Shown: piece after piece, positions 1 through 52,684 of the stretch
Position numbering within the stretch: position 1 is the stretch's first letter
Layout of the letters: every line of letters starts with the position of its first letter
NCBI GenBank assembly: GCA_016188155.1
Contig: JACPIH010000002.1
Span: forward strand, 68,655-132,654
Source: Candidatus Woesearchaeota archaeon
GTDB taxonomy: Archaea; Nanobdellota; Nanobdellia; Woesearchaeales; UBA10216
Direction of reading: 5' to 3'
DNA length: 64,000 bases
Notes under the pieces: generated by a model
Databases searched by the model: none
Seen by the model: only the letters and a program-made list of their open reading frames with translations
Told to the model about the DNA's origin: nothing
Position numbers and translations under genes: made by a program

Positions 1-288
1 ATAGCTGCTGCAGCGAGCGAAAGGGCAAACGGCGAAGCCTTCAACGTAGCAACAGGGAAAGGGACAAGCTTTCTTGAACTGGCAAAGGAAGTGATTAGGG
101 CAAACGGCGGAGGCAGCAGCAGATTCGTGCCATATCCCAAAGAAACAAAACAGCTCGAGCCTGGCGACTTTGTTGCAGACATCCGTAAGGTTAAGAAGCT
201 GCTGGAGTGGGAGCCAAAAACAGGGCTTGCAGAAGGCCTGAAGGCAACAATCAATTTTTATAGGAAAAATAAAAGCCGCTATTGGTGA
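1..288 (+). CDS. NAD-dependent epimerase/dehydratase family protein, C-terminal fragment (gene starts upstream of window)
   Basis: Open frame from window start; C-terminal region typical of extended SDR epimerases (…AEGLKATINFY…); followed by glycan genes. Confidence 0.5.
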   Translation: MAAAASERANGEAFNVATGKGTSFLELAKEVIRANGGGSSRFVPYPKETKQLEPGDFVADIRKVKKLLEWEPKTGLAEGLKATINFYRKNKSRYW

Positions 289-295
289 CCTGAAA

Positions 296-1384
296 ATGAA
301 AAGAATCCTGATAGGCAGCAGCGGAGGAGTGCCGTCAATAAATTTTGAACGCTCACTCAGAGACGCAAAAGAGCAGTACTACCTCATAGGAATGGACTCG
401 CATGAATACAACATATTCAGGGCAGAGGTTGACGAGTCCCACCTCATTACACTGGCCGCAGACCCCCTGTACATTCCCCTCCTGCAAGAACTGATCGAAC
501 GCGCAAAGCCTGACTTCCTGCACACGCAAAACGACTACTCAGAACTAAAAAAAATCTCTGACAACCGCCACAAGCTAAACACGCTGTTATTTATCCCCAG
601 CGATAGGACAATAAAAATCTGCATAGACAAAAACGCCTCTTACAGGGAGTGGAGCAAAGCTGGCCTGAACGTGCCCCACACAATCCTGGTCAAAACCGAG
701 GATGACCTGCTACAAGCGATAAAGCTCCATGGAACAGTCTGGCTCAGGTACAAAGAAGGCGGATTTGGGTATGGCTCACTGCACACGGGCGACTTCGAAT
801 TTGCGAAGAAATGGATAGACTACTTCAAAGGCTGGGGCAAGTTCACAGCGGCAGAATACCTGAGCGAGCACAGCGTAACATGGATGGCGCTGTACAAGGA
901 AGGCGAGCTGGTAGTTGCCCAAGGCAGGAAAAGGCTTTACTGGGAATTCGCAAGCAGAACAGTCTCAGGGGTAACCGGGGTAACAGGCACAGGCGTCACA
1001 GTAAGCGACCCTGTCCTGGACAAAATCGCGCAGGACGCAATCTACGCCATTGACAAGGAACCGCACGGGGTATTCAGCGTCGACCTGACATACAACTCAA
1101 AAGGCATCCCTACACCTACAGAGATAAACATAGGAAGGTTCTTCACAACGAGCTACTTCTACACCAAAGCAGGCCTGAACATGGCAGAGCTGTACGTCAA
1201 GCTCGCCTTCGGAGAGAAAATCCCACGGATAGAAAAGAAAATCAACCCCCTGCCGGAAGGGCTGGCATGGGTAAGGGGCATGGACGTTCTGCCCGTCCTA
1301 ACAACAGTAAAAGCCATAGAAGCGAAAAAGGCAGACCTGACGCGAAGGATACAAAATGCGCAAAGTCTCACCGGAAAAAAATAA
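296..1384 (+). CDS. ATP-grasp domain protein (carboxylate-amine ligase-like) within sugar-modification operon
   Basis: 362 aa; ATP-grasp-like layout (KTEDDLLQAIKLHG…WLRYKEGGFGYG…EYL…GELVV…, C-terminal …VDLTY…PTPTEINIGRF); internal GVTGVTGTGVTV repeat. Confidence 0.55.
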   Translation: MKRILIGSSGGVPSINFERSLRDAKEQYYLIGMDSHEYNIFRAEVDESHLITLAADPLYIPLLQELIERAKPDFLHTQNDYSELKKISDNRHKLNTLLFIPSDRTIKICIDKNASYREWSKAGLNVPHTILVKTEDDLLQAIKLHGTVWLRYKEGGFGYGSLHTGDFEFAKKWIDYFKGWGKFTAAEYLSEHSVTWMALYKEGELVVAQGRKRLYWEFASRTVSGVTGVTGTGVTVSDPVLDKIAQDAIYAIDKEPHGVFSVDLTYNSKGIPTPTEINIGRFFTTSYFYTKAGLNMAELYVKLAFGEKIPRIEKKINPLPEGLAWVRGMDVLPVLTTVKAIEAKKADLTRRIQNAQSLTGKK

Positions 1385-2309
1385 AGGGCTGATCCTCATC
1401 ACCGGAGGAACGGGCTTTATCGGAAAGCACCTGCTCAACCAGCTAGCAGCATCAGGGCGAAGAAGTATTTGCGTTCTCACAAGGCAGCATCGGCAGCAAG
1501 AATGTTACGAGGGCTTTTCATGCGTAAAAGGCGACCTCACCAAGCCGGAAACGCTTAAAAGCCTCTCTAAACTAAACATCCACACCGCAATTCATCTCGC
1601 AGCGCTAATACCAAACCAGGAAAACCGCAACAACGCGCAAGAGCACATGCGCCAAAACCTCGAAGGAACAATAAACCTGTTCCTTGCGCTCCCGCCAACA
1701 GTAAAGCACTTCATATTCATGAGCACAGCCGACGTTTATGGAACACCAGCCAAGCTTCCGGTAAGCGAAAGCCACCCCACCAAACCAATAAGCTACTATG
1801 CCGTAAGCAAGCTGGCAAGCGAACACTTCCTCAGAGCAGCGTGCCCAAAACGAAACATAACGCTCACCATACTCAGATTAAGCCACGTATATGGGCCAGG
1901 GGAGCCCGTCATCAAAGCAATACCCACGTTCATTTCCAGCTTCCTGGGAGGAAAGGCACCAACTCTCTACAGCAGCCCGAAAGAAGCCAGGGACTACGTG
2001 TACGTAGGCGATGTTGCCACGGCGATTAGGCTTGCAGCAGAATCGGAAAAAGGCGGCATATACAACATTGCAAGCGGAAAACCGCACAGAATAGGCAAGG
2101 TAATGGCAGAAATAAGGGCACAGATTAAAAGCCCGATAAACCCGGCAATAACTGGGCAGGGCAAAAGGCAGAAACCGCTTGTGCTTTACTTCAGCATCAG
2201 TGCGGCAAAACGCAAGCTCGGATACGAGCCGAAAACCCCTTTCGCCAAAGGCATAAGCCATGAAATAGAGTGGTTCAAAAATGCGAACAAGGCACACAAT
2301 CTACGCTGA
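1356..2309 (+). CDS. NAD-dependent epimerase/dehydratase (extended SDR, UDP-glucose 4-epimerase-like)
   Basis: GGTGFIGKHL Rossmann motif near N-terminus; YxxSK (YYAVSKLASE); 317 aa. Confidence 0.75.
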   Translation: MRKVSPEKNKGLILITGGTGFIGKHLLNQLAASGRRSICVLTRQHRQQECYEGFSCVKGDLTKPETLKSLSKLNIHTAIHLAALIPNQENRNNAQEHMRQNLEGTINLFLALPPTVKHFIFMSTADVYGTPAKLPVSESHPTKPISYYAVSKLASEHFLRAACPKRNITLTILRLSHVYGPGEPVIKAIPTFISSFLGGKAPTLYSSPKEARDYVYVGDVATAIRLAAESEKGGIYNIASGKPHRIGKVMAEIRAQIKSPINPAITGQGKRQKPLVLYFSISAAKRKLGYEPKTPFAKGISHEIEWFKNANKAHNLR

Positions 2310-2940
2310 CCTAGACGGAACAATACTGGACACGAAGAAGCGCCACTACACTGTTTACAGCAGCATTCTACGAAAACACGGCTACAAGCCCCTAAACATC
2401 TCTGATTACTGGCGGCTTAAAACAGCAGGCAGAAATAATAAAGAAATCCTGGGCAGGTCCAAAGCGCAGCGCCTCACAAACCGGTTCACGGCAGAGTGGC
2501 TGCATAACATAGAAAAAAAGGAATACCTTGCCCTTGACTTGCTGCAGCGCAGCGCAAAAAAAAGCCTTACAGCGCTCCTCTCTTTCAGGCTGGTACTGGT
2601 AACCCTCCGCCGAAAACGCAGAAACCTGATATGGCAACTAGAACGCTTAGGCATAAAGGAACACTTCAGCGCAATTCTCAGCGCACCACCTTCGCGGCAG
2701 CCGCATAAACAAAAGGCAAGCCTCATCAAAAAAGACAGCCAAAACAACCACAAGGGGATTTTTATTATGGGAGATACGGAAGCGGACATTGCAGCAGCAA
2801 AAGCGCTCAAAATACCTGCAATAGCGGTAACCAGCGGAATCCGCAACAGCAAACAGCTGCTGAAGCTCAAGCCTGAGTTCACAGCCCAGCAACTAAGCGA
2901 CGCTGTGCAAATCATCAAAAAGCAAAGCGCCAGAAGGTAA
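2281..2940 (+). CDS. HAD-superfamily hydrolase/phosphatase
   Basis: N-terminal DLDGTILDT (DxDGT) motif; C-terminal GDTEADIAAA motif IV-like. Confidence 0.55.
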   Translation: MRTRHTIYADLDGTILDTKKRHYTVYSSILRKHGYKPLNISDYWRLKTAGRNNKEILGRSKAQRLTNRFTAEWLHNIEKKEYLALDLLQRSAKKSLTALLSFRLVLVTLRRKRRNLIWQLERLGIKEHFSAILSAPPSRQPHKQKASLIKKDSQNNHKGIFIMGDTEADIAAAKALKIPAIAVTSGIRNSKQLLKLKPEFTAQQLSDAVQIIKKQSARR

Positions 2941-3347: not shown

Positions 3348-4013
3348 GTGGGAAAAAGGGGTTCATTTGCTATTAAGAAGAACAAGGTAGTTGTCCTATT
3401 TTTAGTTTTGTTATTCACCTCCTCACTTAGTTACCTTATTTTTGCTAATGCTGCCGAAGTTCAAGAAATTGTCAAGAGTGTGATTAATGGCAATTCCGCA
3501 AGTGTAGAAGCCAGTCCAGCACATATAAATTATGAGGAGAGTATGAAAAATTTCAGAGGTGCTCTTCTATCTTTAAATGTAACAAGTTCACACAGCTTTG
3601 AAAAAACAGTTGATTCTGAAAAACACGAGCTTTCAGTAGAGCTTATCGAACCTGTAACAAGACAAGGGGCTCATTTGAAAGTAAACAACGAGAATGTTTT
3701 TCTTCCATCTGGCGGTACCAGTTATATAGATGGTTGGCTTATCAGGAACAGGGGAAATATCAAAGATCCAAATGGCATAATCAGTTCAAACATAGATTCT
3801 TTTTACATAGGCACCGATGGCGACTGCAGCCTTGCAGACCATTACGAATGCATTGATGGGAATTTGCACTGGTTTTATTGCAATGGCACGGACTATGGCA
3901 TGGTGGAAGAGTGCGATTCGTGCCAAGATAATGAATGTGTAAAAAAAGGAACTTTTGCCCGCTGGGAGCGAATAAAGGTACTTAGGCAAAATGTTAGTGT
4001 TGCAAGTGAATAA
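3348..4013 (+). CDS. secreted/membrane-anchored Cys-rich hypothetical protein (GTG start)
   Basis: N-terminal hydrophobic signal/anchor (VVVLFLVLLFTSSLSYLIFANA); Cys-rich C-terminus; 2-nt gap to next gene. Confidence 0.5.
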   Translation: MGKRGSFAIKKNKVVVLFLVLLFTSSLSYLIFANAAEVQEIVKSVINGNSASVEASPAHINYEESMKNFRGALLSLNVTSSHSFEKTVDSEKHELSVELIEPVTRQGAHLKVNNENVFLPSGGTSYIDGWLIRNRGNIKDPNGIISSNIDSFYIGTDGDCSLADHYECIDGNLHWFYCNGTDYGMVEECDSCQDNECVKKGTFARWERIKVLRQNVSVASE

Positions 4014-4015
4014 AT

Positions 4016-7000
4016 ATGAACAAGAATTTATTGGTAATTTTGGCAATCATTTTAGCTGCAGTTCTGTTACCGATATTGGTTGAAGCTTTGCCAGTGATAG
4101 ATTCTGATGAGAGTTGGAACGTTAATGGCGGGACTATATTTGACAATGTTATCTGGACTGATGATAACATAGACTTCGAAGTAAATGGGATTAATGATGG
4201 CTCAGCAGACTTTGTTTGTGTGGATTGGAACAACGATGGAACTTTCGATAATTGCTATTACGATTCTAATGGCTGTACTTCAAGTTGCGGGGTAAATGAT
4301 TGCGATTTTTTCCCTATTCCTCAAAACATGAATGATGCCAATAAGGAAAGTTGCGATATTGAAGGAAGCTGTAAGGAAGGAGTTGACGTTGCACAAAGAG
4401 TATGTGATGGGTGTAGTGCGGTAGACACGTCCAATATTCAGAACACATACGTCAATGCTACTGTATACTACGATTGTGATAACTCGCAGAGTAACAGGCA
4501 CTCAGATTCACTGGCTAAGGTTGGTTTTTGGGTCATCAATCCCCAAAAGTTTGATTGTGATGCTGACGGTACCGAGGAAGCCGACAATTATAAGGCTGGT
4601 ACAGCTTATTACGACCTTGAAGGAAAGAACGGTAGCGGCAGCACGGATTGGAAAAACGTAAAAAGCGATTTAGGGTGCCCAGCATACAGGATTTGTGATC
4701 CTACCAGCAGCCATACAAATCATGATGATGAAGAAGTTACAACGAGAACAGGGATAATTCTGTCACCTTGCTCGCTTGAAGATGGCTCGACACTAAATCA
4801 CGTCTGCACTCAAAACGCCGATTGCTATTCCGGAAACTGCGGCGGCTGGGCTACTGATGAGAAACATGTATGCGTAACGGATGGAAGCAACAATTACTAC
4901 CAACAGTTTAAGTATACCAACAGGACTTGCGGAGGAGCAGGCTATACTGATGGCATATTTTATACTAATGCCACGCTTTCGTGCGCTGTAAAGGCAGGAC
5001 CAAGCTACGTCTGTGACTCAGACCATGATGAAAATGTCACAACAAACCCAACCACTCCTGCTTTACCATGCAAAAAAGCAGTTGGCCAACCTTGCTCCCA
5101 AGACAGCGACTGCTGGAACGACGATGGTGGTGTCTTATGCACATCAGGTTATTGCAAAGGGCTGCCAACTTACTGCACTGGCTCGATAGAAGTTCTTACC
5201 GAGGACAGCAGCGGCGCGCCCCTTTCCGGCTTAAGCGTTTACTGGAACGCTACATACAACGGCACCACGGATAGTCTTGGGCAAAGGATACTAAACCTTA
5301 ACGTCACATGCGGCTCTGACCAGAACGTTACGGTAAAGTGCTCCAATAACAGCACTGTTTGCGATACCAAGCTGACACAGATTGACAGCAGCGGCGACAT
5401 AGACTTCCTGTACTTTGAGTGCACAAAGTGCAGCCCGAAGAAGGACCTTTACGTTACGCAAAGTGATGTTTACGTTAACATAACAAGTAAGAGTGTGAAC
5501 GTTACAGTTCATTCTTCCAGCATAACGTCTAATGTGCAAGTTACGGTTTATAGACTGGACGAAGAAGGTGTCACAAAGGAAAGCAGTTCAACAACTATAT
5601 CACTGACTGCGGGTTCAGAAAAGAATGCCTCATTCACTTTAAGCAGTATCGCATCAACTGATTTCCTGCACATATACGTGGACTCCAATAACGCAGTAAA
5701 AGAGGACGACGAGACAAACAACTACGTTTTCAGGGCGGCAGTAAAACCGATTAAGGCCTATATTGACGTTAAGCTTGACCCTTCTTTCTCCATTCTGAAC
5801 GAGCTGGTAAAGGAATACATTGGCACTTTCGTGGAACCTTCAAGTTCTTCCCAAGCAGATGTCATAATCATTGTCGGGCACCCAAAAGTGTCCAATTCTG
5901 AGCCGTTCAATATAACTGGCACAATTATTGGCGGCGGTAAATCCATGCAGAAAGCATACGCTGGAGTTGTTAAAAAGGCTCCGGATTTTGTGAATAGTTA
6001 TTCTGGGAAGCCTGAAATATTAGTGTACGGCAACCAAATCCAGGGCGATATCGCTGCTGTGAAGCGCTTAATCAGTGCCAGAAGCATCTTTTTGGATAAA
6101 GGAACAAGCAGCAAATCGTATACCGTTTTTATTGATGACTACGACTCGTTAGGTATTTCCGTGATGGACCTTATGAGTAGGAACGAGACTAAAAAGCACA
6201 TGAAAAACAACAACATTACGTTAGCTAACGATGTTAGGAAGATTCTTTATGATAACAATTTTGAGGTTGCCGTGAAGCCTGTGAAGACGCTGAGCACCAC
6301 TTCGTATGGTAATTCGAGCATATTACGGGTCAAGAATGTAAATACTGATTTTTCTGTAAGTTATAAAGATGCTGTTGGTATCAGTAACTTTCCAGTAGTT
6401 TTTAGCGGTGGACTTTTTAGCCATTTAACTGCATGGGAAGGCAATGGTAAAGGGTTAGCCAAACAGATGGCCGGGGAAGGTTGGGACGTATGGGAAATAG
6501 AAATGACAGGAGGTCCCGATACCGATTGTAGTGTTTCAGATGTTGACACTTGTCCTAATTACGCTTACAGCGATTTGACAACGTACTTTTGGCCTGCACT
6601 AATTGCTGGAATTCAAAAATACTCGGGAAAAGGTCAGGTTGATTATGTGGGGCATAGTAATGGCTGCTTGGCGGCGCTAAGTGCGTTGAATAATTATTCC
6701 TTGTCTGGTAAAAATAATACTGGCTACTACTTTAACTATAACACGGGACAGTACTTATTCGTGAATCTCTCCTCAAACCCTGTGAGGAAGTTTGTAGGAG
6801 TGGCATGCCCCTCAGTTTTAGACGACAGCACAGCATATACGACTCTGGCAAGATTAAACAGCAAGTTTGGTAGTGGAACAGCCGGCGATGTGGCTATGAA
6901 TAAACTCGCTGGCAAAAAGCACGTAACAATGGGACAATACGCACAATACCTCGTTCCTAGCACACCCACCAAACTTGACGACTACGCCAGTTTCATACTA

Positions 7001-7300
7001 GCATTTGCAGGCGGGAAAAAAATCTCCTACAACCTTATGGACTTCTACAATGATTTGGCGGTAAGTAATTCAGATTCTATAAATTTGAGCGGACTAAACG
7101 TAAGCAAACTTTACCTGTTGGCAACAAATCCGGACGATTTCATAGTGTCCTACGACGATCAGCTTGAAATAAATGGTAGCGCTACAGCTCTAACAGCACC
7201 TAATAAAGAGATAATAACCTATCAGGGCATAACATTTAATCATATAGCGATTAAAGATAGGCCGACAGTAAAAGAAAAAATAAAAGAGAAATTAAAATGA
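4016..7300 (+). CDS. giant secreted surface protein with Cys-rich N-terminal region, CARDB-like domain(s) and a C-terminal alpha/beta-hydrolase (lipase/esterase-like, GHSNG) module
   Basis: Signal peptide; numerous N-X-S/T sequons; E..DETNN CARDB-like motif (DDETNNYVF); GHSNGC nucleophile-elbow-like motif (VDYVGHSNGCLAAL), later DDFIV and FNHIA (candidate Asp/His). Confidence 0.6.
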   Translation: MNKNLLVILAIILAAVLLPILVEALPVIDSDESWNVNGGTIFDNVIWTDDNIDFEVNGINDGSADFVCVDWNNDGTFDNCYYDSNGCTSSCGVNDCDFFPIPQNMNDANKESCDIEGSCKEGVDVAQRVCDGCSAVDTSNIQNTYVNATVYYDCDNSQSNRHSDSLAKVGFWVINPQKFDCDADGTEEADNYKAGTAYYDLEGKNGSGSTDWKNVKSDLGCPAYRICDPTSSHTNHDDEEVTTRTGIILSPCSLEDGSTLNHVCTQNADCYSGNCGGWATDEKHVCVTDGSNNYYQQFKYTNRTCGGAGYTDGIFYTNATLSCAVKAGPSYVCDSDHDENVTTNPTTPALPCKKAVGQPCSQDSDCWNDDGGVLCTSGYCKGLPTYCTGSIEVLTEDSSGAPLSGLSVYWNATYNGTTDSLGQRILNLNVTCGSDQNVTVKCSNNSTVCDTKLTQIDSSGDIDFLYFECTKCSPKKDLYVTQSDVYVNITSKSVNVTVHSSSITSNVQVTVYRLDEEGVTKESSSTTISLTAGSEKNASFTLSSIASTDFLHIYVDSNNAVKEDDETNNYVFRAAVKPIKAYIDVKLDPSFSILNELVKEYIGTFVEPSSSSQADVIIIVGHPKVSNSEPFNITGTIIGGGKSMQKAYAGVVKKAPDFVNSYSGKPEILVYGNQIQGDIAAVKRLISARSIFLDKGTSSKSYTVFIDDYDSLGISVMDLMSRNETKKHMKNNNITLANDVRKILYDNNFEVAVKPVKTLSTTSYGNSSILRVKNVNTDFSVSYKDAVGISNFPVVFSGGLFSHLTAWEGNGKGLAKQMAGEGWDVWEIEMTGGPDTDCSVSDVDTCPNYAYSDLTTYFWPALIAGIQKYSGKGQVDYVGHSNGCLAALSALNNYSLSGKNNTGYYFNYNTGQYLFVNLSSNPVRKFVGVACPSVLDDSTAYTTLARLNSKFGSGTAGDVAMNKLAGKKHVTMGQYAQYLVPSTPTKLDDYASFILAFAGGKKISYNLMDFYNDLAVSNSDSINLSGLNVSKLYLLATNPDDFIVSYDDQLEINGSATALTAPNKEIITYQGITFNHIAIKDRPTVKEKIKEKLK

Positions 7301-7896
7301 AAATTACTAAAAATCATTTACTCACAGCATTACATCTGTTACTAGCTACGATAACTGGTGGCTTTTTTGCCGGACTGCAATCTATTATACACCCAAGTGA
7401 CGCAACAATTTTTGCTCCGATATATTTTATTGCACTAAATTCGTTATTGTTTACGCCAGCCATACTTTTTTCACTTTTTTATATTTTTATGGCAAGTAAA
7501 ATTTTAAAAAACGATTTTAAACCTTCACGTGGTTTGTGGACTGGAACGATTGCTGGATTACTGTTGGCAAGCGTATTATTGACGTATTTATTAAACGTTG
7601 AAATAACAGAATCCTATAAAGTTGAAGGTGGCGCTATAAATGAAGATTTTAAAGGTACGGCCACAGGATTAGAAAAATTGTCATTAACTTCATTCTATTC
7701 ATTTTTGATTTTATTTTCTATCCTTACTCCACTAATAGATTTTTTCGATTTTAAAAGAAGAAAAACAAGAATTGACACAAAAAATTTCTTTTTACTTTTA
7801 GGATTGTCTATTGGTTATTATGTTCTGATTTTCCTTTGGAGAATTGTATTATTTTATGCCGTTAACATATTTTTATTTTTCGCATTATGGAGCTAA
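7297..7896 (+). CDS. small polytopic membrane protein (candidate immunity/partner protein of upstream hydrolase module)
   Basis: 199 aa, 5-6 predicted TM helices, very AT-rich; start overlaps upstream stop (ATGA). Confidence 0.5.
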   Translation: MKITKNHLLTALHLLLATITGGFFAGLQSIIHPSDATIFAPIYFIALNSLLFTPAILFSLFYIFMASKILKNDFKPSRGLWTGTIAGLLLASVLLTYLLNVEITESYKVEGGAINEDFKGTATGLEKLSLTSFYSFLILFSILTPLIDFFDFKRRKTRIDTKNFFLLLGLSIGYYVLIFLWRIVLFYAVNIFLFFALWS

Positions 7897-9140
7897 AAAT
7901 GATTCGAAAACAATTAGCTGCTGTGAAGCGTTTAATCAGCGCACGAAATATCTTTTTGGATAAAGGGACTGGCAGTAAGTCGTACACGGTGTATATTGAT
8001 GATTTTGATTCTCTTGGTATTTCTGTGATGGATTTGATGAGTAGGAATGAGACTAAGCTGCATCTTAAAAACAACAACATTACATTAGCCAATGACGTTA
8101 GGAAAATCCTGTTTGACAACAACTTTGAAGTGGCTGTAAAGCCTGTGAAGACGCTGAGCACAACTTCTTATAACAATTATTCGATTTTAAGAGTAAAGAA
8201 TGTTAATTCTGATTTTTCTGTAAGTTATAAAGATGCTGTTGGTATCAGTAACTTTCCAGTCGTGTTTAGCGGTGGACTTTTTAGTAACTTGATTGCTTGG
8301 GAAGGTGATAATGGTAAGGGTTTAGCCAAGCAAATGGCTGGTGAGGGCTGGGATGTCTGGGAGATTGAAATTACTGGAGGGCCTGAAACTGATTGCAGTA
8401 GTTCAGAAATAGATACTTGTCCTAACTATACGTACAGCGACTTAACCGACTTCTACTGGCCAGCTTCGATTGCAGGGGTTCAAAAATATTCAGGAAAAAA
8501 TCAGATTGACTATGTGGGGCATAGTAATGGTTGTAGGGCAGCTTTAAGCTCACTAAATAGCTACTCTACTTCCGGTAAGAATAATTCAGGTTATTATTTT
8601 AATTACAACACGGGGCAGTATTTTCTCGTAAATCTGTCTACAAATCCCGTCAGGAAGTTTATCGGCGTCGCGTGCCCAACAACTTTAAATGACGTATCGG
8701 ATATCTCTGTGATAGCCAGAGAATTAAAGGGAGGGGTATCAAAAGGAGACCTAGCAATAAGAGCTCTTTATAATGATAAAATTCAGCATATAAAACGCCA
8801 ATCTTATGCTGGGAGGTTGGATGCAAAAGCCTGGTTTGTAGCAAGAAGTGATTACAAAATATCTACTGCTTTGATGAAGTTTTATAATGACATAAGCATC
8901 GAGACAAATACACAATTCGCTGTTTCACCAAATATTGCTAACAGAACATATTTATTTGCCGGAACAGAAGGCTATTTTGGTTTAAAACATTACGAAGGAG
9001 ATGGAGTTGTGCCTCTGAGTGATATGCTTATGCTCAACAATTCCTTAGATAATTCTGTTTTATATCTTATTAAAGAAAATCATGGCGGGATACTATCCAA
9101 TCCATTATTTATTGGCACTATCAAGGAGGCTGTAAAATGA
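7887..9140 (+). CDS. orphan alpha/beta-hydrolase (GHSNG) cassette, paralog of C-terminal module of 4016..7300, no signal peptide
   Basis: Roughly 80-85 percent nt identity to 6040..6800 with perfect tracts; GHSNGCRAAL, GDGVVP, ENHGG motifs (Ser-Asp-His order); overlaps upstream gene by 10 nt. Confidence 0.55.
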   Translation: MELKMIRKQLAAVKRLISARNIFLDKGTGSKSYTVYIDDFDSLGISVMDLMSRNETKLHLKNNNITLANDVRKILFDNNFEVAVKPVKTLSTTSYNNYSILRVKNVNSDFSVSYKDAVGISNFPVVFSGGLFSNLIAWEGDNGKGLAKQMAGEGWDVWEIEITGGPETDCSSSEIDTCPNYTYSDLTDFYWPASIAGVQKYSGKNQIDYVGHSNGCRAALSSLNSYSTSGKNNSGYYFNYNTGQYFLVNLSTNPVRKFIGVACPTTLNDVSDISVIARELKGGVSKGDLAIRALYNDKIQHIKRQSYAGRLDAKAWFVARSDYKISTALMKFYNDISIETNTQFAVSPNIANRTYLFAGTEGYFGLKHYEGDGVVPLSDMLMLNNSLDNSVLYLIKENHGGILSNPLFIGTIKEAVK

Positions 9141-9553
9141 ACAAGAAACTAATTTACAGAATACTGATAAATAACTTTTTGTTTATATTTTTTGAGATTA
9201 TCTTTTTGGGTTTGATATTGTTGGGTGTTTTTGATGGTTTGATGCCTTCAAATTATGGAGCCTGGATATCCTACGAGGGTTATGGAGTAGTAATCGCAGG
9301 AACTATGGCGGTTATAATCTGCTCCTACGTCTTAGCATATAAAAGATATAACAGTTCAGATACTACGCTTAAGTCTCTTATGAAATATTATAACCTATCC
9401 TTTATTTTAATGATGATCTTTTTGATAAAACTGTTAACTTTGCCTGCCTTTTCACCAGTCATGATTATTGCGTCGCTTTTTGCATTTTTCTTTTTGCTAA
9501 GTTTTTTTGCTTCAATACTGCATCGGATACAAAGCAGAGGTTCAGAAAAATGA
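9137..9553 (+). CDS. small polytopic membrane protein (second candidate immunity/partner protein)
   Basis: 138 aa, about 4 TM helices; ATGA overlap with upstream and downstream genes. Confidence 0.5.
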   Translation: MNKKLIYRILINNFLFIFFEIIFLGLILLGVFDGLMPSNYGAWISYEGYGVVIAGTMAVIICSYVLAYKRYNSSDTTLKSLMKYYNLSFILMMIFLIKLLTLPAFSPVMIIASLFAFFFLLSFFASILHRIQSRGSEK

Positions 9554-10284
9554 GCCAGAAACAATTTATTATAAAACAGATGGCAAAGTTTGTTCAAAAT
9601 AGCTTACTTAGAGCATCCAATGCTAACGTCATAATCATTGTCGGGCACCCAAGGGTATCTAACTCTGAGCCGTTCAATATCACAGGAACAATCCGTAGTG
9701 GAGTAAAATCAATGCTGAAGCCTTATGCTGGAGTTGTTAAAAAGGCCACAGATTTTGTGAACAGCTACTCAGGAAAACCAGAAATTTTAGCGTATGGTAA
9801 TGGTATTCAGGGTGATGTGGCTGCAGTTAAACGCCTTATTAACGCTCGCAGTATTTTCTTGGATAAGGGCACTAACAGCAAATCGTATACCGTTTTTATT
9901 GATGACTACGACTCGTTAGGTATTTCCGTGATGGACTTAATGACGAGGAATGAGACTAAGCTGCATTTGAAGAATAATAATATCACGCTCGCGAATGACG
10001 TTAGGAAGATTCTTTTTGACAACAACTTCGAAGTGGCGGTAAAGCCTGTAAAAACTCTTAGCACAACTTCTTATGGTAATTCAACCATTTTGAGAGTTAA
10101 GAATGTCAACAGTGACTTTAGCAGAGGCTATAGGGATGTTGCCGGTATAAGTGATAAGCCTGTAGTTTTGTCAAGAGGTATTCACAGTAATCTCTTCAGC
10201 TGGCAGGATTTTGCAAGAGAATTGACCGGCGAGGGTTTTGACGCGTGGCTCATTGAAAGTGCAGCAGGGGCAGAGAATGACTAA
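9550..10284 (+). CDS. truncated orphan cassette homologous to the region upstream of the hydrolase core (possible pseudogene/donor cassette)
   Basis: ANVIIIVGHPRVSNSEPFNITGTI… aligns with 5860..6500 of the large gene (61-nt perfect tract); diverges and stops before the GHSNG segment. Confidence 0.45.
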   Translation: MSQKQFIIKQMAKFVQNSLLRASNANVIIIVGHPRVSNSEPFNITGTIRSGVKSMLKPYAGVVKKATDFVNSYSGKPEILAYGNGIQGDVAAVKRLINARSIFLDKGTNSKSYTVFIDDYDSLGISVMDLMTRNETKLHLKNNNITLANDVRKILFDNNFEVAVKPVKTLSTTSYGNSTILRVKNVNSDFSRGYRDVAGISDKPVVLSRGIHSNLFSWQDFARELTGEGFDAWLIESAAGAEND

Positions 10285-12601
10285 GGAACTTATAGAAAAA
10301 ATGTTCGTGTACCTGATTTGCCTGCTTGCAGGCTCATCTGCCGTGTTAGCTGCGAATATGACAGTTGACAAGCTTATCGATTCTTACGACTACGATTTCG
10401 ATACGGGCGTTATTAATGTAACCACATTTAGCGATTATATGATAGACCAGAACAGCAACGGGTTGAACGATACGCTTGTAATCAACTTGACTACTAATGC
10501 CTTGAACAGTTCGACGTACCTATTCATAGTGAGTCTGAATGAGAAAACAGGCTTACTGAAAAATTATACAAATGCTACTGTTAATTCCACTAGCCAGAGT
10601 GCACTAGTACTTTTTGACACCAAACTATTGAACCTTAACCAGTACAATTATTCGGTTGAAGTGCGAGGCCAAGATTACGGGCTGGTTTTCACAAAATACA
10701 AGGTCCAGACAAACAGTTATCAAAGTTATGAAAAAGGAGTTAACATAACTTTAATATCAGATGCTGCTGTTAACAATAACCTGCTCAGGATTACATTGAG
10801 CTTGAACGTCACAGAAAATAAGACCACGAGCATTACGGTTTATTTGAAGTACAATAATCAGAGCATTTCTTCCACAAAGGAAGTTACTTTAACAACGCCA
10901 TCGCAAATGGTCGATGTTGACTTTGATAATGAAACGATTAAATCAATTCACTATGTTGGCAATTACAGCATAGGAGAAGTAAAGATTGGAGAGAAATTAC
11001 TCGCTGTTAGTTATAATACGTCCTCTTACAACTATGCTGATTTTGCTAAGAGTTCTTACATCAAAAGCGTCGTAAGCGGAGCTTTTGACAATAACTCAAA
11101 CAACCTTTCAGATGCGTTGCAGGTGAATTTCACATTGAATGTTACAGAGGCGGGGGATTTCACTTTAGAGGCGCCTCTTTACACAGCCGAAGGAGAGTAT
11201 GTGACGGCAATTGCCAAGAACGTCACACTGAGCGCTGGCTTGCAGACTGTAATCACAGAAGTAGCTGGAAAGAACATATATTTGACTTACTACAATGGAG
11301 TTTTTGAGCTTTCATTTGCAAAATTGTCTTCAGGAAATAACACGAGGGATATACTTTATGATGCGCATGCGACTAATTCGACTTTTTATACTGACTTTGA
11401 AAGGCCGTCATTGCCTGACCTGAAAGTCAATATCTCAATAAATTTTTCCTCGGTTACTAACGTTACAAATATTACTGTAAACCTTAGCAATATTGGAAAT
11501 GCTCCAGCATTCAACATAATGATTAATGTTTTGGACAATGTTAGTTATGAAAATGAGTCATCGCTTTCTTACTTGAATTTAAGCGATTCTCAAGTTTTTT
11601 ACTTCACAGCCCAAAATACAACGAATGACTCGCTTTTTATAGCCATAGCTGATTTTGAAAATCTTGTTGATGAGAGTAATGAATCAAATAATTTCATTGA
11701 TACATCTCCACCACCGCCACTGCCCGTAGTTTCGCTCAAAATTGTCAGTTTATCTCAGCTTTACTCCTTAGCAACCCACAAAGTGTTCGAATTTGTTATT
11801 GAGAATAACGGCTCATCTGCAGTTAACAATGTTACTTGGAAGCTCAACCTCGGGGATGGCACCGTTATAAACAGCACCCGGAATACAAGTCTGGCCATAA
11901 ATGAAACAATACGTGTACATTTCGAATACAATTACAGTTCCGAAAGCGATTACACCGTTACAGCTAACGCTACCGCTATTGCTGAGGGCGTAACGGCCAC
12001 TAAGACACTGGTTATTAGTTCGGCTGGCACGCTTTCCCTCAGCAACTTAAAAGTGCTTTATTCTAATTTATCGGAAAGAGTGTTCGAGTTTACCATTAAC
12101 AACAGCGGCGATAACAACCTTAGCGCTAATTGGACACTCAACTTGGGAGACGGCAATGTCGTAAGTAGCACGCAAAATGCTAACCTTAACTCCAGCAAAT
12201 CCTTGCTAGTGTACGTTCAGCATGATTATTCCGCCCAAGGCGACTACTCGGTTACCGCTACTGCGCAGGGCGGCGGTCTTACGGCATCTTCCAGTATTCC
12301 TGCAGAAGTTGAGTATCTTGGAGTTAGCAACTTTTCCGTTATTAACAGCAGCGGCTCTTTGAGAACATTTGAGGCTTACGTCAAGAACTACATGGCAGTC
12401 GCAATGTCTAACGTAAGCTGGAGCCTCAATACAGGCAATGGCATTGTGAGCAGCACATCGCCAATTACCCTACAGCCTCAGGAAACCGCTTTTGTTTTTG
12501 CAAAATACAACTATACAGCAACTGGCACTTTTGCTGCCAATTTCACAGCTGTCAACAGCTCATGGAATGATTTGGAAGCATTGAACGTCACAATCACGTA
12601 A
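10277..12601 (+). CDS. secreted CARDB-repeat surface protein, heavily N-glycosylation-sequon-rich
   Basis: Signal peptide MTKELIEKMFVYLICLLAGSSAVLA; FENLVDESNESNNF CARDB signature; about 4 internal roughly 90-aa repeats (…NLGDGTVINST…DYTVTA…); dozens of N-X-S/T. Confidence 0.55.
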   Translation: MTKELIEKMFVYLICLLAGSSAVLAANMTVDKLIDSYDYDFDTGVINVTTFSDYMIDQNSNGLNDTLVINLTTNALNSSTYLFIVSLNEKTGLLKNYTNATVNSTSQSALVLFDTKLLNLNQYNYSVEVRGQDYGLVFTKYKVQTNSYQSYEKGVNITLISDAAVNNNLLRITLSLNVTENKTTSITVYLKYNNQSISSTKEVTLTTPSQMVDVDFDNETIKSIHYVGNYSIGEVKIGEKLLAVSYNTSSYNYADFAKSSYIKSVVSGAFDNNSNNLSDALQVNFTLNVTEAGDFTLEAPLYTAEGEYVTAIAKNVTLSAGLQTVITEVAGKNIYLTYYNGVFELSFAKLSSGNNTRDILYDAHATNSTFYTDFERPSLPDLKVNISINFSSVTNVTNITVNLSNIGNAPAFNIMINVLDNVSYENESSLSYLNLSDSQVFYFTAQNTTNDSLFIAIADFENLVDESNESNNFIDTSPPPPLPVVSLKIVSLSQLYSLATHKVFEFVIENNGSSAVNNVTWKLNLGDGTVINSTRNTSLAINETIRVHFEYNYSSESDYTVTANATAIAEGVTATKTLVISSAGTLSLSNLKVLYSNLSERVFEFTINNSGDNNLSANWTLNLGDGNVVSSTQNANLNSSKSLLVYVQHDYSAQGDYSVTATAQGGGLTASSSIPAEVEYLGVSNFSVINSSGSLRTFEAYVKNYMAVAMSNVSWSLNTGNGIVSSTSPITLQPQETAFVFAKYNYTATGTFAANFTAVNSSWNDLEALNVTIT

Positions 12602-12638: not shown

Positions 12639-14705
12639 ATGAGAAAAATCAGGGAAGCGGCAAAAGCTGGTTTGAGAAGTAACTTAGGCACAAGAGCCCT
12701 TCTGATATTTACTGTATTGGTTATTTCACTATTGCTGCTGCAGGTTGGTAGCGTGAGCTCTGCAGAACCCCAGACAGGGGCTGCTCGCGGAGGAGTTAGC
12801 GTTTGGCACGAAGTCTCAGGGGTGGGGCTCCTCAACATAACTCCGGAAGTAGCTAAGGTTGGCGAAACCGTACTGTACAACTACACTGCTTACGCCCCTT
12901 TTAATCTCGGCTTAAACCTAACGATAAAGTTTGAAAACGACGAAGGATACTTGGATTACGTAGAAGTTTTCAAGAACGTCCAGAAGACAGCCACGCTGGC
13001 TAACGTTTCAACCGAGCAGCTTTTCAACCCCTCAAACGCTTCCTTCTACAACGTAACAACAGTAAACACCAGCATACTAACAACCTTCGTAAAAGAATGG
13101 GTCGCAACGCCAACAGTCAAATACGGCATAGGCAGCGATTATTACTACACTGCAAAATTCGTTACCGGAGAGCAAGTAAGGTACAAACCGAAAGCTAAGG
13201 TTTACGGAGGCATAATCAAGTACGACGCAATCCTTCACCCTTCCAACCTTAACGCAACTCAGCCAATAAGAATAGAAATAGACCCAGTACTTAACGCCAC
13301 GGCAGCCAACATAACAAGCAACTCAGACCTGAACCTGTCAGCATCAACGGCAAGGTTCGTCCCGCCAACAAACAACCTCATACTGGGGGCGGGCAATGGC
13401 AGCAACTTGACAGAATTTGACACTTTTTCCGACAGCAACTTTAACGGCTGGACAACTTTTAATAGAAGCGCTTCGGGAAATGGGTGCGGCTCAACAACAA
13501 GAGTCGGCGTGAACAAAGGAAGCTTAAACATAACAAGCGAACAAGTAGGAACTTCTAACTGTTTCGCAACAGCTTGGATACTCACCAACCACAGCATCAA
13601 TAAGCTCGGCGGAGTTGTGGTAACTGCAAAAATCAACACAAGCAACGTGCCTTCTACAGGTCAAGTGATGATGTGCTACGCTAACCAGTATGATAAGCTT
13701 GCCAACAGCACAAGTGGCAACCCTCCTTCTTGTTACGGCAGCGCAAACTCCGGATACGACGGATTAGTAGCGTATTTTGATGGAGACTCAACATACCATT
13801 TGGCTTCAATAGTGGACGCTGGTGTTGTTTCGGTAAGCGCATCTTACGGGACAAGCAGCAGGAACAGTGTTGAAACGTGGAGGGTGTATGTTGACTGCAT
13901 TACCCCTCAAGCGCAGCTTACGATTAACGAAGTTTCTGGCGAAGGCACAGCAATAGAAGGAGCAGTTTACACCCCAAACGCAGCTGCAGACCTTTGCTCC
14001 GGAGGAGCTTTCGGAATCCAAGCGGCAGACAACGGTGCTGGCGTAAACACGATATACGTGGATAATTACAGCATCGCTAACGCTTCCGTTTTCGGAAGCC
14101 CATTCAACCTTACGCCTGCAAGATTCCAAACCAACGTCCTGAACAGCACAATAACTACGACTTCTGTGAAGATAACCAACATCACAGCATCTTATGCTAA
14201 CACGGCAGCAAATTTTTACGTTTTTGATGCTAATCACGCTAATTTGCAAAGCGTCACGGAAGGCAGCTTCAACACCATAAACAGCATCACAGGCATCGGC
14301 ATTAACGCAACATTCGTACCAGCAGACATCAATACCGTAACAGAACTCACAAGCATACTTTTGGAGTGGTCAACGGCAGGAGGAGGCGGTCCTTCAAACG
14401 CGAACGAAGCAGAAGGCGACACAGCCATTGAGTTGGGCATCAACAGCTCACTCGCATCAGCTACAAAGTACAGCGAACAACAAGTATACGTCAGAAACCT
14501 AAGCAACAACCAAACCCTTGGCACGTTCGACCGGGTAGCAAGCTTCGGCAGCCAGAGGTGGCTGCTTAACTACGTCACAAGTGGAGAGAGCTACGTCAAC
14601 GCGCCGAATTTGACTACTGCGGTTTACGTGCTGGAAATCACGAATAAGACCTCTGCACAGATAACTGACGAAGTGAGCAGGCACATCAATGCTACGAAAA
14701 GCTGA
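12639..14705 (+). CDS. secreted surface (S-layer-like) glycoprotein candidate
   Basis: Signal peptide/TM (ALLIFTVLVISLLLLQVGSVSSA); 688 aa, Asn/Thr/Ser-rich with very many N-X-S/T sequons. Confidence 0.5.
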   Translation: MRKIREAAKAGLRSNLGTRALLIFTVLVISLLLLQVGSVSSAEPQTGAARGGVSVWHEVSGVGLLNITPEVAKVGETVLYNYTAYAPFNLGLNLTIKFENDEGYLDYVEVFKNVQKTATLANVSTEQLFNPSNASFYNVTTVNTSILTTFVKEWVATPTVKYGIGSDYYYTAKFVTGEQVRYKPKAKVYGGIIKYDAILHPSNLNATQPIRIEIDPVLNATAANITSNSDLNLSASTARFVPPTNNLILGAGNGSNLTEFDTFSDSNFNGWTTFNRSASGNGCGSTTRVGVNKGSLNITSEQVGTSNCFATAWILTNHSINKLGGVVVTAKINTSNVPSTGQVMMCYANQYDKLANSTSGNPPSCYGSANSGYDGLVAYFDGDSTYHLASIVDAGVVSVSASYGTSSRNSVETWRVYVDCITPQAQLTINEVSGEGTAIEGAVYTPNAAADLCSGGAFGIQAADNGAGVNTIYVDNYSIANASVFGSPFNLTPARFQTNVLNSTITTTSVKITNITASYANTAANFYVFDANHANLQSVTEGSFNTINSITGIGINATFVPADINTVTELTSILLEWSTAGGGGPSNANEAEGDTAIELGINSSLASATKYSEQQVYVRNLSNNQTLGTFDRVASFGSQRWLLNYVTSGESYVNAPNLTTAVYVLEITNKTSAQITDEVSRHINATKS

Positions 14706-14735: not shown

Positions 14736-16205
14736 ATGACAACAACCAGAAACGCCGCATATGTCTTGTCAGCACAGGTTGTGCTGCTTTTATCAGGCAC
14801 AATAATAAGCCTGGGCCTTGGCAGGCTGCTCGGGCCCGAGCTTTACGGCAGATATGGCGTAGTATTCGCGATAGCCACAGTCATGAATATCCTGCTCGTG
14901 CCAGGAATGATGCAGGCAGTTTCTAAGTTCGTTGCCGAAAGAAAAGACAAGCCGGAAGCCGGGGCTGTTGCAAGGGCAGTTCTCAAAAAACAGCTTTTGA
15001 CAGGAGCAATCATCGCAGCTGCATACTTCTTCCTCGCGATACCATTGTCAGAAGCTTTGAGGGACAAGTCGCTGCTGCACCTTTTCCAAATAATAACGCC
15101 AATGGCAATCATATACGGCGTATCAGCCGTGTACGGAGGCTACCTCACGGGAACAGGCAGGTTCCTGGAGCAGTCAAAGCAGCTGATTCTCTACTCAACC
15201 AGCAGGCTTGTGCTGACATTCCTCCTTGCATACCTATTCTCACTGGCAGGAGCAATAATTGCGCTGCCGGTCTCAGCCATGATAGCCTTGGCCTACAATG
15301 CAAGAGTTGCAAGGCTCGGGCTAAAAAGTGAGGCACAACCAGCTGCAAGAACAGCTCAGGCAGCAGCTACAGCGGAAGTGTACAAGTTCGCACTGCCGCT
15401 GACGCTATTTTCGGTGCTAATCACGCTTTTTATGAACACAGACCTGCTGCTTGTCCAGGCGCTTCTCAACAATCCACAGGCAACAGGCTACTATACCGCC
15501 GCAAGCGCCACAGCAAGGATACCTTACTTCGTATTGACAGCACTAGCTGCACTGGTGCTTCCTGCAGTCGCTGGAAAGCTGATGGTTTCTGCCAAGGAAG
15601 CGCAGGGGTTTGTCAAGGAAACACTGAGGTACGTGCTCATCCTCCTGCTGCCGGCAACAGCTGTGTTTGCCGCAACAGCCAAGCCTTTGATGATGCTGCT
15701 CTACCGGTCAGAATACGCCCAGGCAGCAGAGCCGGCAGCCATACTGGCAATCGGGACAGCAGCGCTGACATTGGCTTATCTGCTTGCGACAGTGATAAAC
15801 GCTTCAGGAAAAACACGCGCAACAGTCGCTGTGGCGGCAGCTATGCTCATCATAAGCGTATTGGCAAATTTGGCAGTAATACCGAAGTACGGGCTTAAAG
15901 GCGCAGCCCTAGTCGTAATGTCAACATCATTAGTTGCGGTGGCTGTTTTAGCAGCTGTTGCTTACAAAAAAATAGGCAGCTTTGTCAGCTACAGGAGCCT
16001 AATCAAAATCTTGGCCTCAACTGCAGTGATTTTTGCAGTGGCAAATACTGTGCAGCTCCAAAACAAGTTCCTCCTGCCTGCAGAATACATATTCCTGGGA
16101 ATTGCTTACCTGATTCTGCTCGTACTGTTCAGGGAAATAAAAAAAGAGGACATCAAGAAAATAAAATCGCTGATACCGCTGGGAATTAAAGTGAATCAAG
16201 CTTAG
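14736..16205 (+). CDS. polysaccharide biosynthesis protein / oligosaccharide flippase (Wzx-like, MOP superfamily)
   Basis: 489 aa, about 12-14 TM helices, Wzx-like hydrophobicity pattern; located in glycan cluster. Confidence 0.65.
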   Translation: MTTTRNAAYVLSAQVVLLLSGTIISLGLGRLLGPELYGRYGVVFAIATVMNILLVPGMMQAVSKFVAERKDKPEAGAVARAVLKKQLLTGAIIAAAYFFLAIPLSEALRDKSLLHLFQIITPMAIIYGVSAVYGGYLTGTGRFLEQSKQLILYSTSRLVLTFLLAYLFSLAGAIIALPVSAMIALAYNARVARLGLKSEAQPAARTAQAAATAEVYKFALPLTLFSVLITLFMNTDLLLVQALLNNPQATGYYTAASATARIPYFVLTALAALVLPAVAGKLMVSAKEAQGFVKETLRYVLILLLPATAVFAATAKPLMMLLYRSEYAQAAEPAAILAIGTAALTLAYLLATVINASGKTRATVAVAAAMLIISVLANLAVIPKYGLKGAALVVMSTSLVAVAVLAAVAYKKIGSFVSYRSLIKILASTAVIFAVANTVQLQNKFLLPAEYIFLGIAYLILLVLFREIKKEDIKKIKSLIPLGIKVNQA

Positions 16206-16232
16206 CCATTTGCTATTATTTGTTATTATTTG

Positions 16233-16964
16233 CTATTTCTTGTTTTTTAGGCTGTTTTCCCTAACTATGGCGTTGGCCTCAAACCATGACTCCAGCGTTC
16301 CAGCGTCAGTCCAGTAGCCCTTAAGCATGCTCCAAGAAAGCCTGCCAGAGCTCAAGTAATGGGTAACCACGTCAACAATCTCCACCTCGCCACGCTTAGA
16401 TGGCTTCAACGCAGGAATCACGCCGAAAACAGTGCTGTCAAACATGTAAACGCCTGTCACGCAAAGGCTGCTTGGCGGATTAGCCGGCTTTTCGTGAATA
16501 GCAACAATTTTATCCCCTTTTAACTCAACAACGCCGTAGCGCTGCGGGTCATGGACTTCCTTAAGGAACAAGTGCGCACCGTGGCTGCTATCCTTTTCAA
16601 ACTTCACAGCATCCTCTTTCAGACTTTCCTCCATAACATTGTCACCAAGAACAACCATAACCTTGCTACCGTCAGCGAACTCCCGGGCAAGGGCAAGGGC
16701 TACTGGAATGCCCTCAGCGCCCTCTTGGCAACGATAAGTCAAATTAACGCCAAAATCCTCGCCGCTGCCAAGCAGCCTAAGAAAATCGCCAATGCTCTCG
16801 CCGCCAACAATAATAAGGATGTCCTTAATCCCAGCCGCTGCCAAGGTCCTGATAGGGTAGTAAATCATGGGCTCGTTGTAAATGGGAAGAAGGTGCTTGT
16901 TAGTGACCTTTGTCAAAGGCAGCATCCTTGTCCCCTTACCCCCAGCAAGAATCACGCCTTTCAT
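16233..16964 (-). CDS. rmlA: glucose-1-phosphate thymidylyltransferase-like sugar nucleotidyltransferase
   Basis: MKGVILAGGKGTRMLPLT signature; start ATG 16964 overlaps rmlB stop (ATGA). Confidence 0.7.
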   Translation of the reverse strand: MKGVILAGGKGTRMLPLTKVTNKHLLPIYNEPMIYYPIRTLAAAGIKDILIIVGGESIGDFLRLLGSGEDFGVNLTYRCQEGAEGIPVALALAREFADGSKVMVVLGDNVMEESLKEDAVKFEKDSSHGAHLFLKEVHDPQRYGVVELKGDKIVAIHEKPANPPSSLCVTGVYMFDSTVFGVIPALKPSKRGEVEIVDVVTHYLSSGRLSWSMLKGYWTDAGTLESWFEANAIVRENSLKNKK

Positions 16965-17929: not shown

Positions 17930-17956
17930 AACAGCCAGGCATGTTAGGAAGACTTA

Positions 17957-20136: not shown

Positions 20137-20153
20137 AGAGAAAGAAGGGCTAT

Positions 20154-21221
<1,068 letters not shown>

Positions 21222-21224
21222 TTA

Positions 21225-22286: not shown

Positions 22287-22344
22287 CTTTTACAACTTTA
22301 CGGGGATAACAATGTTTTAATACTGTGGTTGCTGCCGTGCCCGT

Positions 22345-52561: not shown

Positions 52562-52684
52562 CGTCGTGAACGGCCATGGCCGCCCGGTAATACCTGATCC
52601 CATTTCGAACTCAGAAGTCAAGCGGGCGCACGTTCCTGCCAGTACTGCACGTCGTGCGGAAACGTAGGATCGCTGTTCACACTT
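52562..52684 (+). rRNA. rrf: 5S ribosomal RNA
   Basis: …CCCAUUUCGAACUCAGAAGUCAAGCGGGCGCACG… matches conserved 5S loop C/helix III core; 5' GUGAACGGC pairs with 3' GCUGUUCAC (helix I); TATA upstream, T5 tract downstream. Confidence 0.8.

Follow-up and report, generated by a model that had tools for sequence, protein, structure and literature searches.

Bacterial CdiA-CT/CdiI, Rhs-CT/RhsI and MafB/MafI loci encode a large secreted multidomain protein with a variable C-terminus and, next to it, a small cognate gene (PMC3482391). Toxins of polymorphic systems of this kind can include lipase-like alpha/beta-hydrolase domains, and subtilisin can act in them as the releasing protease; in archaea such systems are rare (PMC3482391). 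As of 2021, archaeal polymorphic toxin systems had been predicted but not experimentally characterised, and the authors who described VARTIG, a hypervariable, lineage-specific locus of Thermococcales of unknown function, also likened it to such systems (PMC8416519). We analysed a stretch of 64,000 nucleotides (nt) from a Candidatus Woesearchaeota archaeon (contig JACPIH010000002.1, positions 68,655 to 132,654; hereafter the window), in which a giant secreted protein ends in a hydrolase module and is followed by small membrane-protein genes alternating with further module copies. The locus shares the outline of the bacterial loci named above and is one instance of a two-gene unit, hydrolase module plus membrane partner, that occurs across Woese-, Pace- and Nanoarchaeota. 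The array comprises the following features, given in window coordinates with lengths in amino acids (aa) and predicted transmembrane (TM) segments:

4016..7300, plus strand: open reading frame (ORF) A, the 1094-aa giant, with an N-terminal hydrophobic leader (secreted)
5783..6265, plus strand: conserved N-domain of the module in A (aa ~590-750), the source of the homology common to A, C and E
6264..7297, plus strand: alpha/beta hydrolase domain of A, acid-lipase-like
6323-6343 and 6392-6412, plus strand: hydrolase landmarks in A, strand beta2 (LRVKNVN) and the oxyanion strand (PVVFSGG)
6656-6658, 7136-7138 and 7241-7243, plus strand: triad codons of A, Ser881, Asp1041 and His1076
7297..7896, plus strand: ORF B, a 199-aa polytopic membrane protein with about 5 predicted TM segments, cognate partner of the tail of A
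7887..9140, plus strand: ORF C, a 417-aa stand-alone, leaderless, 5'-truncated copy with a partial N-domain and a complete hydrolase, triad intact
9137..9553, plus strand: ORF D, a 138-aa membrane protein with 3-4 predicted TM segments, partner of C
9550..10284, plus strand: ORF E, a 244-aa 3'-truncated copy with the N-domain and first hydrolase strands, without the nucleophile

The five ORFs lie where the initial annotation had placed them, with the overlaps of 4 to 10 nt that it described (4, 10, 4 and 4 nt at A/B, B/C, C/D and D/E). All four internal junctions (7285-7312, 7875-7905, 9125-9150 and 9538-9565) have the same AAAATGA stop/start context, which agrees with the proposal of a single translationally coupled operon and suggests termination-reinitiation coupling along the whole array. 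An alternative start of C lies at 7899, 2 nt past the stop of B. Frameshift fusion of a membrane gene with the next module was rejected, as the overlaps are ordinary ATGA-type stop/start arrangements. Within A, the leader is followed by a Cys-rich region, a CARDB-like domain (aa 487-570), the N-domain (aa ~590-750) and the hydrolase (aa ~750-1094); A is also the cluster representative P0050 in the 50%-identity clustering of the module family. Its description as a CARDB protein is borderline, with a score of 22.6 bits against a Pfam gathering cut-off of 22.7; the next gene downstream, ORF F, reaches 34.6 bits and passes, and giants at related loci score above the cut-off or near it. ORF C has no TM segment and no leader and is identical in sequence to NCBI HYV83_00490. 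Searches of Pfam and NCBIfam returned no significant match for B, C, D, E or the more distal ORF G; matches below threshold were to Anthrone_oxy and DUF4293 for B and to PhaZ7 for C, the last taken only as a hint of a lipase.

Three copies of the module are present (the C-terminus of A, C and E), and no fourth was found within the 64-kb window. The copies are 73-79% identical in DNA over 300-nt stretches and 66-72% identical in protein. Homology between A and E begins at aa 596 of A (nt 5801), and that between A and C at aa 674 (nt 6035). The recurrence of the module at C, and in truncated form at E, was therefore correctly recognised; E stops before the nucleophile. The module had been put at roughly 480 aa, and its conserved extent is about 500-580 aa. 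A membrane gene after each copy, also proposed, is found for A and C but not for E, which abuts the large gene F. Independent contigs are 100% identical to the window across 6530-8238 (tail of A, B and start of C; four sequencing runs) and across 8231-9905 (C, D and E; two contigs compared, from two runs), so the array is not a mis-assembly. The runs that contain identical contigs belong to the SRR121133xx and SRR121134xx series and derive from groundwater.

Modelling and profile comparison identify the module as a true member of the alpha/beta hydrolases that has a conserved Ser-Asp-His triad and is nearest to the gastric and lysosomal acid lipases. In a 34-sequence alignment, Ser292, Asp452 and His487 are invariant, corresponding to Ser881, Asp1041 and His1076 of A, and a GxSxG nucleophile elbow is followed by Asp and His in canonical order. 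The motifs first picked out by eye fall on these columns, both in A (GHSNGC 6650-6667, DDFIV 7133-7147 and FNHIA 7235-7249) and in C (GHSNGC 8517-8534, GDGVVP 8997-9014 and ENHGG 9075-9089). Of 53 giants, 52 have an intact triad, as do 33 of 36 stand-alone copies; the other three copies are fragments cut off by contig edges. An AlphaFold2 model of aa 590-1094 of A (mean pLDDT, the predicted local distance difference test score, 81.8) showed an alpha/beta hydrolase in its last ~345 residues, with human and dog gastric lipase and lysosomal acid lipase as top Foldseek matches. The sequence profile of the family matched gastric lipase (E 1.6e-7) and lysosomal acid lipase (E 1.1e-6) in the PDB. Structure prediction and profile search thus agreed with the hydrolase reading of the initial annotation. 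Curated family thresholds were not reached, either for Pfam Abhydrolase_1 (13.7 bits, cut-off 25.8) or for Tle3 (E 0.069, 13.1 bits, cut-off 27); homology is concluded because the profile-to-PDB match (E 1.6e-7) and the fold agree, the Pfam threshold being missed.

The module family comprises 294 clusters at 50% identity and was found at at least 65 loci in species-representative genomes, numbered here with the prefix L. Genome labels are Woese-, Pace- or Nanoarchaeota, plus some 'Methanosarcinales' metagenome-assembled genomes (MAGs). The loci from MAGs labelled 'uncultured Methanosarcinales' are L013, L014, L024, L035, L048, L052, L055, L059, L060, L062, L066 and L072; these labels probably reflect mislabelling or bin contamination and, if genuine, would be of interest for host range. 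One genome may hold several module loci (three in JBBSWH01). Typically the module makes up the final ~570 aa of a secreted protein that is 1000-1750 aa long, and a hydrophobic N-terminal leader is also present on giants of related loci. The N-terminal architecture of the giants varies, with Peptidase_S8 (in many of them), FG-GAP, NosD/beta-helix or, as in the window, a Cys-rich region, followed by a CARDB-like domain. No published description of the family was found by a literature search that did not reach the survey of Makarova et al. 2019, mBio.

Pairing of the hydrolase module with a small membrane partner is obligate. A small ORF (at most 260 aa, at least 2 predicted TM segments) directly follows 81 of the 89 modules with a complete C-terminus, including those of one-module loci, and most of the eight exceptions sit at contig ends. 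Module and partner usually overlap by 4, 8 or 11 nt. The partners themselves are extremely diverse: 78 of them fall into 48 BLAST groups, 39 of which are singletons. Among 5.8 billion proteins, B had one homologue; it accompanies the L002 giant, the tail of which is 84% identical to that of A. In the same set D matched nothing but itself, and its one weak relative is the partner found with the L013 giant. B is not related to D.

Comparison across the family separated the module into a conserved core and a hypervariable tail. Cores are 80-100% identical where tails are 29-55% identical (between species, 80-95% and 35-55%), the tail consisting of the cap and the C-terminal third of the hydrolase, from about aa 930-975 of A. 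Between A and C the core is 86% and the tail 29% identical, in keeping with the earlier remark that C retains the catalytic motifs but has a divergent C-terminus. For 106 module pairs with a core identity of at least 0.75, partner similarity was correlated with tail identity (Spearman 0.63) and not with core identity (Spearman 0.02). A variable C-terminus that co-varies with the adjacent small gene is the comparative signature predicted from the likeness to polymorphic toxins, and it was recovered here. Tail and partner gene are co-inherited as a block. Because the two are adjacent, their joint variation speaks for block co-inheritance; an interaction between the proteins themselves is putative.

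Such blocks are also exchanged between strains. Two woesearchaeotal loci, L003 and L004, have flanks that are 98.7-99.6% identical, and a central block of 2.6-3 kb has been replaced. The block contains, in order, 525 aa, TM126, 440 aa, TM123 and TM175 in L003, and 530 aa, TM128, 378 aa, TM171 and TM102 in L004 (modules by length, membrane proteins by the prefix TM). The breakpoint falls inside the module gene, in its 3' half. Tail identity is 47%, and the swapped partners have no detectable similarity. Within L003, two stand-alone copies share an 856-nt stretch that is ~99% identical (8313-9168 and 10010-10865) and then continue into tails that are 48% identical, which points to recent gene conversion or duplication limited to the conserved part. 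ORF A itself is a mosaic, nearest to the L001 giant up to about aa 760, and from aa 780 onward 80-97% identical to the L002 giant and 20-60% to that of L001; B is shared with L002 only. Between A and the L002 giant, the proportion of nonsynonymous differences (pN) was 0.315 upstream and 0.085 in the tail. For L057 and L058, the proportion of synonymous differences (pS) was 0.40 in the tail versus 0.71-0.77 elsewhere in the gene. At aa 780-840, E has a second core type ('type II') like that of L1_giant, L1_505 and L2_633 and unlike that of A or C; in L001 this is the type of the main gene. Block exchange is expected of a locus resembling polymorphic toxins, and the L003/L004 replacement, the mosaic A and the exchange between copies all conform to it.

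More than one module is present at about 24 of the 65 loci. The stand-alone copies are 5'-truncated at scattered points (positions 55-338 of the family hidden Markov model, HMM), each with its own partner gene, so that C and D, first described as an orphan cassette of this kind, have counterparts well beyond the window. Three copies at L019 begin past the oxyanion strand and are therefore unlikely to fold as autonomous enzymes. The 378-aa copy of L004 (11969-13105) has a Cys-rich motif, CEEGEYQC...CDSGYCEQVPTYVTC, fused straight to the second part of the hydrolase; by eye the motif resembles CSQDSDCW...CTSGYCKGLPTYCTG of A, at around aa 380-410. This copy looks like an internal-deletion variant without the CARDB domain, the N-domain and the first strands.

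Copies in the window had saturated pS (0.69-0.82) and a pN of 0.06-0.16 (A versus C, pN 0.057 and pS 0.69). The pN/pS ratio among copies, about 0.05-0.15, indicates strong purifying selection. As pS is saturated while pN is low, the copies are old and individually constrained. Positive-selection tests and dating gave no result, since synonymous sites are saturated between all copies (pS 0.6-0.9).

The genes on either side of the array, and two features that recur near it in other loci, are as follows:

3348..4013, plus strand: 221-aa secreted Cys-rich protein, an ORF with an N-terminal hydrophobic segment
10277..12601, plus strand: ORF F, a secreted CARDB/PKD protein of about 775 aa (Pfam PKD 1.3e-12, CARDB 2.2e-8)
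12639..14705, plus strand: ORF G, a 688-aa secreted protein
Junctions of a module remnant with F or its homologue: window 10225-10310; L001 ~12460-12560; L002 ~13060-13100; also at L007, L012, L014, L018, L028 and L032
Recurrences of the G tail: L007 4646-4942; L018 4513-4809; L028 4867-5163; L024 4877-5173

The 221-aa protein is 62% identical to the product of the syntenic gene of L001 and has no Pfam or NCBIfam match; its gene probably belongs to the same cluster as ORF A. The mechanically called ORF F starts from TTG at 10238, and the ATG at 10277 is the likelier start. Homologues of F (about 770 aa, CARDB/PKD) are present in 36 fetched loci, a few of which are duplicates of one contig, and in most loci extending far enough the homologue comes straight after the final module or partner gene. 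About 100 aa at the C-terminus of G (aa ~588-688, window 14400-14705) recur in other loci, at 46-55% identity, at the end of the gene just upstream of the giant; they may be a shared assembly or anchoring domain of the surface-protein cluster. Because F-type and G-tail neighbours recur, the unit belongs to a conserved set of surface proteins.

E had been presented as a truncated C-terminal orphan. We instead read it as a 3'-decayed remnant in a compact operon: it spans HMM positions 87-325, and 3'-truncated fragments like it occur at at least 9 loci, always abutting the start of an F-type CARDB/PKD gene. Truncation points differ (HMM end positions 87-350), and the fragments reach the G-rich ribosome-binding stretch and ATG of the F homologue. 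No conserved DNA site was found at the junction but the Shine-Dalgarno-like G-rich stretch before the F ATG. So tight a junction could result from a recombination hot spot or from deletion creep, and deletion creep is our guess.

The array has a GC content of 31-39%. Positions 7000-11999 are AT-rich, with 31-35% in the membrane genes and 36-42% in C, E and the 5' part of F, compared with 45-50% in the flanks. The low GC is compatible with cassette import from lower-GC relatives or with membrane-gene composition. The flanks in the window (91-2940 and 14736-22300) and in L001 (1-5168 and 16914-21518) carry genes for sugar-nucleotide epimerase/dehydratase and glycosyltransferases and a Polysacc_synt flippase, with an aminotransferase gene as well in L001. 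Both loci thus lie within a surface-glycan biosynthesis region; other lineages have unrelated flanking genes (tRNA endonuclease, ribosomal proteins). Near the array, no tRNA, integrase-like or phage context was noticed. No tRNA gene was found in the whole 64 kb, and a lone 5S rRNA gene lies at 52566-52681 (Rfam 66.6 bits).

By analogy, the locus may work like a polymorphic-toxin-type effector/partner cassette system, as distinct from being a demonstrated member of that class; we put the probability of this at roughly 0.5. The N-domain and the first half of the hydrolase would serve as a conserved recombination platform, and the membrane protein would be inherited and exchanged as one cassette with the cap and C-terminal third of the enzyme. 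C and D would then form a complete but leaderless further cassette, and E a 3'-decayed one. The Sec-exported giant would carry a hydrolase effector at its extreme C-terminus, whose target would be an ester-linked component of another cell, a neighbour or a host, in the membrane or envelope. At the producer's membrane, the cognate membrane protein would recognise the variable cap and neutralise the hydrolase in an immunity-like manner, and stored cassettes would let the allele switch through homologous recombination. Substrate, toxicity and immunity are inferred here, and the leaderless copies may act as proteins or serve only as a recombination reservoir.

Features of polymorphic toxins found in this family are a secreted multidomain carrier, a variable C-terminus, a co-varying adjacent small gene, orphan cassettes and recombinational replacement. 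Several observations weigh against the analogy. All 89 complete modules are the same alpha/beta hydrolase, where unrelated toxin folds would be looked for. Often only one copy of the unit is present, in a conserved operon that also encodes a CARDB/PKD protein, which resembles a permanent fixture of the cell surface more closely than an accessory weapon. The lipids of archaeal membranes have ether bonds, which leaves no obvious target for a classical lipase in an archaeal cell. The partners match no known immunity family in Pfam or NCBIfam. The joint variation of tail and partner could stem from linkage in recombination blocks and not from protein-protein interaction. Finally, the extra copies are probably translated, judging from their AAAATGA coupled starts and strong purifying selection, though they have no export signal. 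The layout proposed in the initial annotation therefore stands as regards the co-varying tail and partner, the orphan cassettes and the exchange, and departs from the bacterial pattern in its single enzyme fold and its frequent single-copy state next to a CARDB/PKD gene.

A related possibility, which we hold to be unlikely as it stands, is a host-interaction device of DPANN archaea. The lipase-like surface enzyme would open or remodel the host envelope, the partner would shield the symbiont's host-derived membrane, and cassette exchange would retune the pair against hosts or rival strains. The organisms that carry the unit are lipid-auxotrophic symbionts, probably obligate and with minimal genomes, and a locus of 6-10 kb kept in many such genomes likely matters for cell-cell interaction.

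Among the other explanations, one that we regard as doubtful, though deserving of serious attention, makes the small membrane protein a dedicated dock or steric chaperone, which would hold or fold the hydrolase of an otherwise unanchored giant at the cell surface, similar to lipase-Lif or SlaA-SlaB; the copies would be expressed isoenzymes, each with its own dock, and the variability would come from host or virus pressure on an exposed interface. A dock would suit a giant that ends without a TM segment or sorting signal, as well as a pairing that is kept in single-copy loci within a conserved operon of surface proteins, and isoenzymes would be expected to retain the triad, purifying selection and coupled starts, as the extra copies do. 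Without a signal peptide, however, the stand-alone copies would not reach the surface, and the L019 copies, lacking the first strands, cannot be isoenzymes. The partners, nearly all transmembrane, leave very little soluble protein with which to clasp or fold an enzyme, and 48 groups among 78 partners, with a block swap between 99%-identical strains, are unusual for a structural anchor. The coupled starts and selection also bear on a silent-cassette system for antigenic or host-range variation, in which the giant would be the sole expressed gene and the copies after it, never translated, would donate sequence to its C-terminus by gene conversion, in the manner of pilE/pilS or vlsE. The mosaic A relative to copies in related genomes, truncation of the copies regardless of domain borders, and the ~99% identical 856-nt stretch of L003 leading into divergent tails would all be explained. 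Yet C and E start with ATG in the same AAAATGA overlap as B and D, and an intact membrane-protein gene, absent from silent-cassette systems, lies between the cassettes. Saturated pS with a pN of 0.06-0.16 marks the copies as old and individually constrained, and the triad is kept in every scorable stand-alone copy. This option, which the initial annotation had offered as equally possible, fits poorly, and we consider it improbable.

The small size, 2-5 TM segments and extreme diversity of the partners, and their overlap with a hydrolase gene, recall holins, which would release the adjacent leaderless hydrolases through a dedicated pore or insertion device, as happens in holin-dependent secretion or with holin/endolysin pairs. 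Stand-alone copies in arrays do each have a membrane gene directly before them, too. On the other hand, the Sec-exported giant has a partner too, even in loci without a leaderless copy, the joint variation is with the tail of the upstream module, and no phage context was noticed; a holin function thus strikes us as very improbable. Ordinary tandem duplication of the 3' part of a surface gene, with decay of the copies, would account for E, clearly a truncated remnant, and for similar remnants at other loci, and DPANN genomes are deletion-prone. It would not account for the same architecture, with intact ORFs and triads, at about 24 species-level loci, for copies that are ancient (pS saturated) yet constrained, or for the replacement of tail and partner as a block between strains, and we give it hardly any credence.

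The family unites a lipase-like enzyme with an intact triad, an obligate, fast-evolving membrane partner and cassette exchange. If the host-interaction proposal is correct, it would represent an archaeal polymorphic effector/immunity system built from a hydrolase and an integral-membrane protector, and it would also suggest a specific means by which DPANN archaea may breach their host cells. Cognate and non-cognate pairs, together with the L003/L004 strain pair, make archaeal effector/immunity logic experimentally tractable.

Compared with described proteins and systems, the enzyme itself is most like the gastric and lysosomal acid lipases (PDB 1hlg, 1k8q and 6v7n), with which it shares a hydrolase core, a cap domain and the Ser-Asp-His triad. 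Identity to these is only 14-19%, the sequence match is limited to the segment around the nucleophile, and the biological context of the archaeal module is entirely different. The Tle1-5/Tli pairs of the type VI secretion system (T6SS) and Tox-ABhydrolase-1/2/3 (Zhang et al. 2012) likewise place a GxSxG lipase-like effector beside a cognate protective gene. The archaeal module falls short of the Tle3 cut-off, and nothing seen around it pointed to a T6SS. Known Tli immunity proteins are lipoproteins or soluble proteins of the periplasm, and polytopic membrane proteins are not known among them. LipA-Lif operons of Pseudomonas and Burkholderia resemble the unit in that a secreted lipase gene is followed by the gene for a cognate membrane-bound partner, but Lif has a single TM segment and a large periplasmic domain. 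Colicin immunity proteins are small, have 3-4 TM segments and neutralise a membrane-acting toxin; those toxins are pore formers, however, and not hydrolases. No sequence relationship of the partners to Lif or to colicin immunity proteins was detected with Pfam or NCBIfam.

VARTIG appears to be the closest archaeal analogue in the literature covered, which did not include the 2019 survey of archaeal polymorphic toxins. It too is a lineage-specific locus for a large secreted protein, there with Ig domains, that has a C-terminus made hypervariable by recombination and is followed by variable downstream genes (PMC8416519). Its variable part is an Ig domain and not an enzyme, and it has no alternating repeat of enzyme and membrane-protein genes. 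The bacterial CDI (contact-dependent inhibition), Rhs and MafB loci share with the archaeal unit, in addition to the features named at the outset, 5'-truncated downstream copies that retain part of the conserved region and have their own small gene, strain-level recombination and several loci per genome. They differ from it in several respects. The host here is an archaeon of the DPANN group, and export is apparently through Sec only. What varies is the cap and last strands of one enzyme and not a set of unrelated toxin folds. As partner there is a polytopic membrane protein; the starts of the extra copies are coupled, and the unit sits in a conserved CARDB/PKD operon. In place of a VENN or PxxxxDPxGL-type demarcation, which is absent here, the candidate junction is the conserved LRVKNVNSDFS strand.

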